NCBI RefSeq assembly: GCF_003334765.1
Contig: NZ_QOWT01000013.1
Direction: 5' to 3' (one strand)
From: Escherichia coli
GTDB lineage: Bacteria; Pseudomonadota; Gammaproteobacteria; Enterobacterales; Enterobacteriaceae
Length of the DNA: 64,000 bases
Part shown: in pieces, positions 44,888 through 48,877 of the stretch
Layout: each line of letters begins with the position of its first letter
Position numbering within the stretch: position 1 is the first letter of the stretch
The notes under the pieces: generated by a model
The model's database searches: none
Told to the model about the DNA's origin: nothing
Seen by the model: only the letters and a program-made list of their open reading frames with translations
Position numbers and translations under genes: made by a program

Positions 44888-47800
44888 TTAGTCAAACGGC
44901 GGTGGGGCCAGCACTTCACGATTACCGTTGTGCCCCTGTTCGCTGACAATCCCCTGCGCTTCCATCTGTTCGATAATACGCGCTGCACGGTTATAACCAA
45001 TGCGGAACTGACGCTGTACGCCAGAAATTGACGCTTTGCGTTTTTCAGTGACAAACTGCACCGCCTGATCGAACAACGGATCCAGTTCTTCAGCGCCATC
45101 GAAACCACCCGCACCACCTTCGCTTTCGCTGTCGGAGGTGATGCCATCAACATACTGTGGGCGACCACGCGCTTTCCAGTCCTGCACCACGGCATGAACT
45201 TCCTGATCGCGAACAAAAGCACCATGGACACGTACCGGCAACGTGGAGTTCGGCCCAGAGTAGAGCATATCCCCCATACCCAGCAGTGATTCCGCGCCAG
45301 CCTGATCAAGAATGGTACGTGAGTCAATCTTACTGGATACGGTAAAGGCGATACGGGTCGGAATATTCGCTTTAATCAGACCAGTAATAACATCAACCGA
45401 TGGACGCTGAGTTGCCAGTACGAGGTGGATACCCGCGGCACGGGCTTTTTGCGCCAGACGTGCTATCAGCTCTTCCACTTTTTTACCTACCGTCATCATC
45501 AGGTCGGCAAATTCGTCAACCAACACCACAATGTATGGTTCTTTTTTCAGCACCGGATGCTGGGCATCCATACTGTCACCCGGCTTCCAGTACGGGTCTG
45601 GAATCGGACGCATCATGCGATCGGCTTCAGCAATTTTTTCGTTATAACCCGCCAGATTACGCACACCCAGCGCAGACATCAGTTTATACCGACGCTCCAT
45701 CTCGTTAACACACCAGCGCAGCGCGTTGGCGGCATCTTTCATATCAGTAACGACTTCCGTTAACAGATGCGGAATGCCTTCATAAACCGAAAGCTCCAGC
45801 ATTTTCGGGTCGATCATGATGAAACGCACATCTTCTGGCTGTGCTTTATAAAGCATGCTCAGGATCATCGCGTTCACACCGACAGATTTACCGGAACCGG
45901 TAGTCCCCGCAACCAACAAGTGCGGCATTTTCGCCAGATCGGCAACCACCGGCTCACCGGCGATATCTTTACCCAGCACCACGGTTAATGGCGACGGATT
46001 ATCGCGGAATTTGGCGTTATCCAAAACTTCGCGCAGATAAACGGTTTGTCGTTTTTTATTCGGTAACTCCAGACCTACATAGGGTTTGCCAGGAATAACT
46101 TCAACGACACGCACCGCCACCGTCGAAAGTGAACGGGCAAGGTCCCGTGACAAGTTAGAAATGCGCGCCGCTTTTACGCCCGGTGCCAGGTTCAATTCAA
46201 AGCGAGTGATAACCGGCCCCGGAGAGTAATTGACGACATCGGCTTTAATACGGAAATCAGCCAGACGCGCTTCCACCAGGCGAGCCATTTGTTCAAGCGC
46301 AAAGGTATCTACCGGCTCCACTTCGCTCGGCGGCGGTGTCAGCAAATCCAGAGAAGGCAGCGGCGTCGTCGGTTTATGCAACGGACGGCTGTCGCCATTA
46401 CGCATCAACAGCGGATGAAGCAGGGTATCCTGCGGTTGTGGCGCAACTGGCTGTTGTGGCTGCTGATACTGCTGCTGCGGCGCAACCGGTTGTTGCGGCT
46501 GCTGATATTGCTGCTGTGGCGCAACCGGTTGTTGCGGCTGCTGATATTGTGGCTGCGGCGCAACCGGCTGTTGTGGCTGCTGATACTGCGGCTGCGGCGG
46601 AACTGGTTGTTGCGGCTGCTGATATTGCTGCTGCGGTGCAACCGGTTGTTGCGGCTGCTGTACAGGTTCAACAATTGGCGTAAACAACGGTTCGTGTGGA
46701 CCATCATCCAGCAACGCTTTCATTGGCGAAAATTCAAAATCATCCAGCGAGAACGGATTCGCCCCAGCCGGTTGTTCGCCGGAATAACGTTGTTGTTGAG
46801 TTTGCGCAAACTGACGAGCCAGTTCAGCCTCTGCCGCAGCATCTGCATCTTCTGCGTTTACGGGCACATCATGTTGATACTGTTCGCCATAGCGTTGCTG
46901 CTGTGTCTGGGCGAACTGACGTGCCAGTTCATCCTGCTGCATCGCATCGATTTCATCATCGTTGTACTGATCGCCAGAATCGTACTGATTGCGCTGGGCT
47001 TCACGGGCTTTTTCTTCCGCCGCACGCTGTGAGGGCAGCTTAATACCGTAAGACGCCAGTTCACGACGAGTTGGCACGCGGATACGTTTCGGTCGTGGCA
47101 ACTGCGGACCAATCCCCTCTTTGACCTGAGGACGCGGTCCACCGCTATTTGCCAGACTGAAGACTGGCGCGGCAACGGTTGCGGCAGCCCCCGTCGCCAG
47201 TGTCGCTTTTTTCACGCCAGATGCCAGCGGGGAAACAGCGGCAGCGGCTTCTACTGGAGGTACTGCTGCAACAGAAGGTGCTTTCAGCGAAGATTTGATC
47301 GGTTCTGGTTCTTTAACCGGTTCTGGAATCGGTTGATACCAGGCCGCAAGTTGTTCACGTTCACGGGCTCGCTTCTCTTCAACTTCTTCAAAGTAGTAAA
47401 GCGGCGGACGCGCGGGTTTTGTCTCTTCTACAACGGGTTCAGGCTCCACAACAGGCTGCTGTTCAACGGGTTGCGGCTGTTGGTACAACGGCTCCTGAGC
47501 GGCTGGCTGCTGATAAGTTTGCTCAGTCTGGTATGTAGACTGTGGAGCAAAAGTGGATTGCTGCTCTTCGGCTTGCCAGGCGTTACCTGCCACCGGTTGT
47601 TCTGGCGCAGGGGCATAATACGGCTGTTGCGCAGGTTGTTCAGCTGCAGGTGCATAATACGGCTGCTGCGGCTGTACTGGTTGTTGCAGCGGCTCATTAT
47701 ATTGCACTGCAGGCTGCGCATATTGTGACTGCTGTGGGTAACCTTCCGGTGCAGGAGCAATAACCGGCTCTCCCGTTTGTGGACCCGGTACAGGCTGCCA

Positions 47801-48877
47801 GGCTACTGTAGGTTGCGCAGGTGGAACATCAACAGAGGCAACAGGCGGCGTCTGAGTCACAGGTTCAACCGGCGCAGCCCAGCTTTGTGTCGCCGTGGTA
47901 GCAGCAGCTGCTACAGCGACAGGTTCGGTAATTGGCGCACCGTTTAATAATGGATCGTATTCGTCATATTCTGGCTGCGTTGCACGATTGCCCGAAAATA
48001 GGACGTCGTCCGGGTCGGCAGCCACACCGCGTGCAGTGTAGGTAATCTCTTCGTCATCATCCATCCGCTTACCGGAGAACAACGCAGCGTCTGTTTGCCG
48101 CCCCATCGGATTAATGAATTTTTCCGCCAACCGTTTACGACGCGCTAGCGCGCCGCGAAGAATACGGGCACGGCGTGATTCATGCTGTTTGCCGTGATTT
48201 TCATCTTCATACTCTTCGTCGTCTTCATACTCATCTTCATCGACCCAGGTATCATCGCGACGGGTACGATTACTGGCGAAGGTGAGAATGTTTAAAATCC
48301 AGCCGCCGAGTTTTTCAGCAATGGTCACCCATGACCAACCGGTGAACAACGTCAGGCCCGCTGCCCAAACGCAGAGCAGCGCAATAGTTCCCCCGCTACT
48401 GTGTAGCAGTGGTTGTAGCGTAGTGCTTAGTAAGCTGCCAATGACGCCACCGGAGGCAAAATACCAGATATCGTCAGCGTTGATTGCCGCCAGACCACAG
48501 GAGGTAAGGATGAGCGCCAAAACGCCAATGATGCGTAGCGAAACGGCAAAATAATCAATGTATTCGTCGCTGGACTGATGACGCCAGGCAAACCAACAAC
48601 CGCCGACAATAATGACGGGAATGGTGTAAGCCATCACGCCAAAAATAAAGAACAGCGTATCTGCCAACCACGCACCGGGCATCCCACCTAAATTATGGAT
48701 AGGTTCATGCCAGGCCGTTTGCGACCAGCTGGGGTCCGAAGGGTTAAAGCTTAGTAAGGCAGCCATCAACCAGACGGCAAACAGGACAATAAGGATCAGC
48801 AACGCCTCCAGAAGGCGGCGGCCGCTACTTAACTTTGTCAATGTGACTTCTTTGTCTTCAGTGTATTCCTGGCTCAA
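44888..48877 (-). CDS. ftsK: DNA translocase FtsK
   Basis: 1329-aa ORF; N-terminal membrane domain, long Pro/Gln-rich linker, C-terminal motor with Walker A GTTGSGKS. Confidence 0.97.
46432..46668. repeat. Tandem ~39-bp direct repeats inside ftsK (encode the PQ-rich linker)
   Basis: About six tandem copies of GGCTGCTGATATTGCTGCTGYGGCGCAACCGGTTGTTGC with minor variation, encoding ([13 protein letters not shown])n. Confidence 0.85.

Follow-up and report, generated by a model that had tools for sequence, protein, structure and literature searches.

Papers using the MLVA panel of Gorge et al. for Shigella and Escherichia coli describe two tandem repeats with 39-bp units, ms07 and ms06, with reported alleles of 1–12 and 2–4 units, respectively. 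A Shigella sonnei MLVA paper equates ms07 with CVN001 of the generic E. coli MLVA. In Salmonella, the marker STTR7, identical to SENTR2, is a 39-bp ftsK repeat, of which S. Enteritidis NCTC 13349 has 9.3 copies. An indel in the ftsK repeat region of S. Enteritidis (84 bp, described as 'two of 9 repeats') has been swapped between two strains, and egg-white survival, which was the only phenotype assayed, was unchanged. The literature describes the FtsK linker itself, which comprises ~650 residues, as a Pro/Gln-rich, unstructured segment whose length varies between species and which FtsK requires for its normal activity, and different parts of it reportedly contact the divisome proteins FtsQ, L, I, and Z, according to a review.

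We analyzed a 64-kb stretch of E. coli DNA (64,000 nucleotides, hereafter the window) that carries two 39-bp repeat arrays in ftsK, designated arrays A and B. Array B is the known VNTR ms07/CVN001, a routine strain-typing marker, and is thus already known. The two published primers delimit an amplicon at 46334–46920 with a size of 587 bp, corresponding to 353 + 6 × 39, and the expression 353 + 39n reproduces the published ms07 range of 392–821 bp for 1–12 units. The flanking primers, the 39-bp unit with its fit to this size ladder, and the copy-number polymorphism all agreed with ms07/CVN001, and we found no evidence against the identification. The published alleles span the 4–11 units found here. 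The ms07 papers score only the amplicon length, while the sequences compared here reveal homoplasy; at the level of the locus there is no difference.

Array A corresponds to ms06, and the ms06 amplicon in the window, 301 bp with two units, has the smallest size reported for that marker. The two arrays are alike in lying in the linker of the same gene, in their unit length, and in being in frame and polymorphic. They differ in their peptides and in their ranges, which is smaller for array A, and array A is located 0.9 kb upstream of array B within ftsK. The Salmonella marker STTR7/SENTR2 is the orthologous array: the units of S. enterica subsp. arizonae, also of 13 residues, occupy the same position in FtsK. 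It differs from array B in the genus, in the flanking residues (PGVMPE.. and SLIHPLL), and in the copy-number range. The 45-bp tolA repeat (SENTR1/SE-10) is likewise a coding, in-frame minisatellite used for MLVA, in another protein and with another repeat sequence. The tolA repeat sits in an extended linker region.

Repeat structure of array B and its place in FtsK

The gene was identified as ftsK by the NCBIfam equivalog NF007615, which matched residues 1–1329 with a score of 3049 bits (cut-off, 1566). Every one of the 5426 complete E. coli genomes contained the locus and had ftsK annotated there, and the 637 bp around array B were 100% identical to those of K-12-type strains. The positions of the arrays, primers, and domains are listed in Table 1.

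Table 1. Features of ftsK and its repeat arrays in the window (coordinates of the window; residues numbered in FtsK).
Feature	Position	Strand	Remarks
ftsK CDS	44888..48877	-	1329 aa, TTG start
ftsK start codon	48875-48877	-	TTG
FtsK linker	46361..48277	-	residues 201-839; no Pfam domain; rich in Q, P, A; holds both arrays
FtsK_alpha (PF17854)	46058..46360	-	residues 840-940; Pfam; DNA-translocase motor begins here
FtsK_SpoIIIE ATPase, beta (PF01580)	45395..46036	-	residues 948-1161; Pfam
FtsK_gamma (PF09397)	44906..45088	-	residues 1264-1324; Pfam
Array A	47591..47668	-	two in-frame 39-bp units; residues 404-429; = MLVA locus ms06
ms06 forward primer site	47759..47778	-	exact match
ms06 reverse primer site	47478..47497	+	exact match
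Array B	46427..46660	-	six units; residues 740-817; = MLVA locus ms07 = CVN001; primer mapping
Array B unit 1	46660-46622	-
Array B unit 2	46621-46583	-
Array B unit 3	46582-46544	-
Array B unit 4	46543-46505	-
Array B unit 5	46504-46466	-
Array B unit 6	46465-46427	-
ms07/CVN001 forward primer site	46901..46920	-	exact 20/20, unique in window
ms07/CVN001 reverse primer site	46334..46353	+	exact 20/20, unique in window
14-residue segment, first copy	46889-46930	-	residues 650-663
14-residue segment, second copy	46784-46825	-	residues 685-698
Open reading frame opposite ftsK	46336-46683	+	overlaps array B
Open reading frame opposite ftsK	46289-47032	+	overlaps array B

At 46440–46660, Tandem Repeats Finder reported 5.7 copies of a 39-bp period, with 88% matches and without indels; in the coding phase, array B consists of six whole units. 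Each encodes 13 residues, the last three being [Q/P]QY, except that the sixth and last unit ends with D instead of Y. The identity at a lag of 39 was 0.872. When the 78 codons of the stretch were permuted 10,000 times, the same measure had a mean of 0.50 (sd 0.03) and a maximum of 0.64. The periodicity of array B is therefore genuine and far above chance, and the CAG/CCG-rich composition alone is not its source. Pairwise, the six units are 77–95% identical; 11 of the 39 columns vary, and 8 of these 11 are third codon positions.

A higher-order period of 117 bp, corresponding to three units, was also detected (1.9 copies, 94% matches, Tandem Repeats Finder). Units 1 and 4 are 94.9% identical, units 2 and 5 92.3%, and units 3 and 6 84.6%. 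This three-unit periodicity suggests that the K-12 allele may have descended from the duplication of a three-unit block. Across the 64-kb window, arrays A and B were the only tandem repeats scoring at least 80. The unit peptide of array A is QQPYYAPA[A/P]EQP[A/V].

The Pfam scan covered residues 201–1329, whereas the NCBIfam match extends over the N-terminal membrane domain as well. No Pfam domain was detected in residues 201–839. Array B is composed of 50% Gln and 28% Pro (78% P+Q) and ends 22 residues before the motor domain. With no folded domain and an extreme P/Q composition, the region belongs to the Pro/Gln-rich linker. As far as is known, only the N-terminal ~200 residues of FtsK are required for viability; although the gene is essential, array B would thus be in a part of it that is dispensable.

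An earlier sequence-only reading of this DNA had placed tandem 39-bp repeats at 46432–46668 and attributed them to the Pro/Gln-rich linker of FtsK. The repeats, the gene, and the placement in the linker were all borne out, with the ends displaced by 5–8 bases from those determined here. Its description of the repeats as near-perfect was too strong in view of the unit identities given above. It had also located them inside an essential gene, which holds for the gene, while the array itself would occupy the dispensable part. The sister array upstream was missed in that reading.

A different repetition was observed elsewhere in the linker, where a 14-residue segment occurs twice, 35 residues apart. 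The two DNA copies are identical at 34 of 42 positions, and this similarity points to a probable older internal duplication. The first copy contains the ms07 forward primer site.

Copy-number variation and the footprints of change

To describe the variation across the species, we took 60 rows spaced evenly down the ranking of the 5426 complete E. coli genomes. From 27 of them the record was fetched and the annotated ftsK extracted, giving 28 alleles together with that of the window. Array B and both of its flanks aligned in one piece in 2354 of the 5426 genomes (43%). The copy number was determined in 48 of the 60 rows, the other 12 all lying outside the six-unit class: 25 rows had six units, 15 had seven, and four had eight, and there was one row each with 4, 5, 9, and 11 units. 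Accordingly, 44 of the 48 determined rows carried 6–8 units. Among the six-unit rows, 21 gave ungapped 637-bp alignments, two of which were fetched and confirmed, one lacked a single CAG codon, and three had an extra 15-bp partial unit. An assembly artefact was rejected as the origin of the repeats, since independent complete genomes with unrelated origins contain the identical 637-bp stretch and many laboratories have sized the locus by PCR.

The 28 alleles comprised arrays of 4, 5, 6, 7, 8, 9, and 11 units, with H10407 (4 units) and F5656C1 (11 units) at the extremes, and no allele without array B was seen among those examined. Array A had 2, 3, or 4 units in the same alleles. All 28 alleles were in frame and free of stop codons. 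FtsK ranged from 1316 to 1407 aa, and after removal of both arrays its length was 1217 residues in 27 of the 28 alleles and 1218 in one; essentially all of the FtsK length polymorphism in E. coli thus comes from arrays A and B. The 1218-residue case is strain 23CRST013, which has a single extra codon outside both arrays and is the sole such case among the 28.

Changes smaller than a unit were found in array B in only two of the 28 alleles, both in frame. In ABU 83972, a 15-bp partial unit (QQPQY) lies between units 3 and 4; H25 and H26 gave the same alignment length as ABU 83972. In TUM9812, one CAG codon is missing from unit 5.

To compare the internal structures, one letter was assigned to each distinct 39-bp unit. 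Strain 492 carries 'ititukvlh', and strains 779, WP2-S18, and EC16 carry 'itukvlh'; in the 3678 bp of ftsK outside the arrays, 3 SNPs separate strain 492 from strain 779. An even closer pair, F5656C1 ('abcdlobcdlh', 11 units) and H10407 ('abgh', 4 units), differs by seven units and by 1 SNP in the same 3678 bp. Unit g of H10407 is a chimera, with its 5' part from unit c and its 3' part from unit l. This is as expected if g were the footprint of one misalignment deletion, in which c at position 3 would have paired with l at position 10 and seven units would have been lost. Such block duplications and the chimeric unit, set in a near-identical gene background, support the view that misalignment of one unit with another causes array B to gain or lose entire units, singly or in blocks. 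Misalignment itself we infer; its footprints are compatible with either slippage or RecA-dependent exchange.

The same structures bear on the tempo of change and on typing. Unrelated isolates of one lineage share their alleles unchanged, as seen among K-12 derivatives, including laboratory-evolved lines, between two O157:H7 isolates, and between D10 and EC31, indicating that array B is not hypermutable on outbreak time scales. The seven-unit class alone contained 11 distinct DNA structures, and the amplicon length therefore masks strong size homoplasy.

The sequence-only reading had anticipated much of this. Copy number does vary between strains, with no sign of the invariance that it named as contrary evidence, and the arrays are, apart from one codon, the origin of the linker-length polymorphism that it had proposed. 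Its suggestion of proneness to slippage or recombination is in keeping with the block duplications and the chimeric unit. The typing locus that it recommended exists already, as the exact primer matches on both sides attest.

Conservation of the unit peptide and competing explanations

The 28 alleles of array B contain 176 units, which fall into 54 distinct sequences and encode just 15 peptide variants. Among the 54 distinct unit types, pS was 0.41 and pN was 0.042, giving a pN/pS of ~0.10. For comparison, pN/pS among alleles was 0.013 in the N-terminal domain, 0.016 in the motor, and 0.05–0.08 in the non-repeat linker. Q1, Q2, Q4, and Q5 were invariant in all 176 units, and V7 and Y13 were nearly so. 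The unit peptide is thus under purifying selection, and the exchange of units inside the array (concerted evolution) could add to the picture of conservation.

We also scanned one genome per species with a degenerate DNA pattern encoding a ten-residue motif. Multi-copy matches at 39-bp spacing were found only in Escherichia (coli, whittamii, and sp.), Salmonella enterica subsp. arizonae, and Citrobacter (sedlakii, amalonaticus, and sp.). These arrays have 4–9 units and occupy the same site in FtsK, between GPHEPLFTP and a segment that begins with L[L/I]. This shared position in three genera indicates that array B is older than Escherichia, Salmonella, and Citrobacter, with its peptide constrained. 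Eight single matches in unrelated phyla (Streptomyces, Bifidobacterium, Phycisphaeraceae, and others) were discarded, as they were isolated and lay in other PQ-rich proteins and not in FtsK arrays.

Array B is very probably an in-frame coding minisatellite that lengthens and shortens a flexible tether in FtsK through unit misalignment. Each 39-bp unit adds 13 Pro/Gln-rich residues, and the array B peptide would form part of the tether that connects the membrane-anchored N-terminal division domain with the hexameric DNA-translocase motor. Units would be gained or lost, singly or in blocks, by misalignment while the DNA is replicated or recombined. Such changes keep the frame, since the unit length is divisible by three, and they are tolerated, since the spacer is unfolded and no folded domain is touched; the length of the FtsK linker accordingly differs between strains. 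We infer the spacer role from the literature and the composition. One finding fits a pure spacer poorly: the unit peptide is more conserved than neutral drift would allow. Together with the occurrence of the motif at this site in both Salmonella and Citrobacter, this hints at a possible constraint on the unit beyond length and composition.

The tether reading has to be weighed against the view that array B is neutral low-complexity DNA, with no selection on its length or sequence. The wide copy-number range, the block changes in near-identical backgrounds, and the Salmonella allele swap without a phenotype in egg-white survival would all be compatible with neutrality. However, the differences between units are overwhelmingly synonymous, the array has been kept at one position in three genera, and the range is bounded, as the predominance of 6–8 units and the presence of the array in every allele indicate; we therefore regard full neutrality as doubtful. 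The opposite view is that the array consists of repeated short linear motifs, with a regularly spaced Tyr, that bind a divisome or envelope partner, with copy number tuning avidity. The purifying selection on the unit, its four invariant Gln residues, the conserved position in the three genera, and the reported interactions of linker parts with FtsQ, L, I, and Z could be read in this way. Against it, natural isolates tolerate 4–11 units, the Salmonella swap left egg-white survival unaffected, concerted evolution can mimic conservation of a peptide, and this sub-region of the linker has no known partner; our literature search returned nothing beyond the review on a finer dissection of the PQ sub-region. 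We consider the binding of a partner improbable. A broader formulation, in which the 13-residue unit would be either a conserved Tyr-punctuated motif engaging a divisome or envelope partner or an element of extended, polyproline-II-like geometry, with the natural variation of 4–11 units tuning the distance and the firmness with which the motor is held from the closing septum, is a long shot. If it were true, there would be heritable differences between strains in when chromosome dimers are resolved with respect to division.

Two further explanations concern the reading frame. A phase-variable contingency locus that switches ftsK by frameshift would bear only a general resemblance to array B, in that both are tandem repeats within a coding sequence. 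The unit of 39 bp is 3 × 13, all 28 alleles are intact, and even the sub-unit variants (+15 bp and -3 bp) are multiples of three; on the strength of the unit length and the intact alleles, phase variation was ruled out, the repeat lacking what characterizes a contingency repeat. The periodicity might instead reflect a gene or an RNA encoded opposite ftsK, and open reading frames do exist on the plus strand (Table 1). The CTG/CGG-rich complement of a CAG/CCG repeat is, however, stop-free by composition, and the plus-strand translation is a low-complexity string of Ala and Val. Moreover, the variation among the units follows the third positions of the ftsK frame, which argues that selection acts in that frame, and an origin on the opposite strand is hardly credible.

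Array B is ordinary, given that it is an established typing marker and that a variable PQ-rich FtsK linker is textbook knowledge. The modest points are that the length polymorphism of FtsK in E. coli maps to two 39-bp arrays and that length-based MLVA hides extensive homoplasy in sequence. A third is the purifying selection on the repeat peptide and its three-genus conservation, in view of which this part of the linker may conceivably have a role besides setting a distance.

Genomic context of ftsK

In the window, ftsK is flanked by lrp upstream and by lolA and rarA downstream, and the same neighbors were found in all fetched strains but one. In E. coli IAI39 (NC_011750.1), an IS3-family element (IS1397 transposase) lies directly downstream of ftsK, at the usual place of lolA. 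All 27 fetched alleles share the TTG start codon of the ftsK in the window.

In the comparison with complete E. coli genomes, 25 matching places were on plasmid-labelled records. One such record, NZ_CP194962.1 ('plasmid pEC16-AU-EG1', 243 kb), carries the core chromosomal genes rarA-lolA-ftsK-lrp and is probably a mislabelled or misassembled piece of the chromosome.
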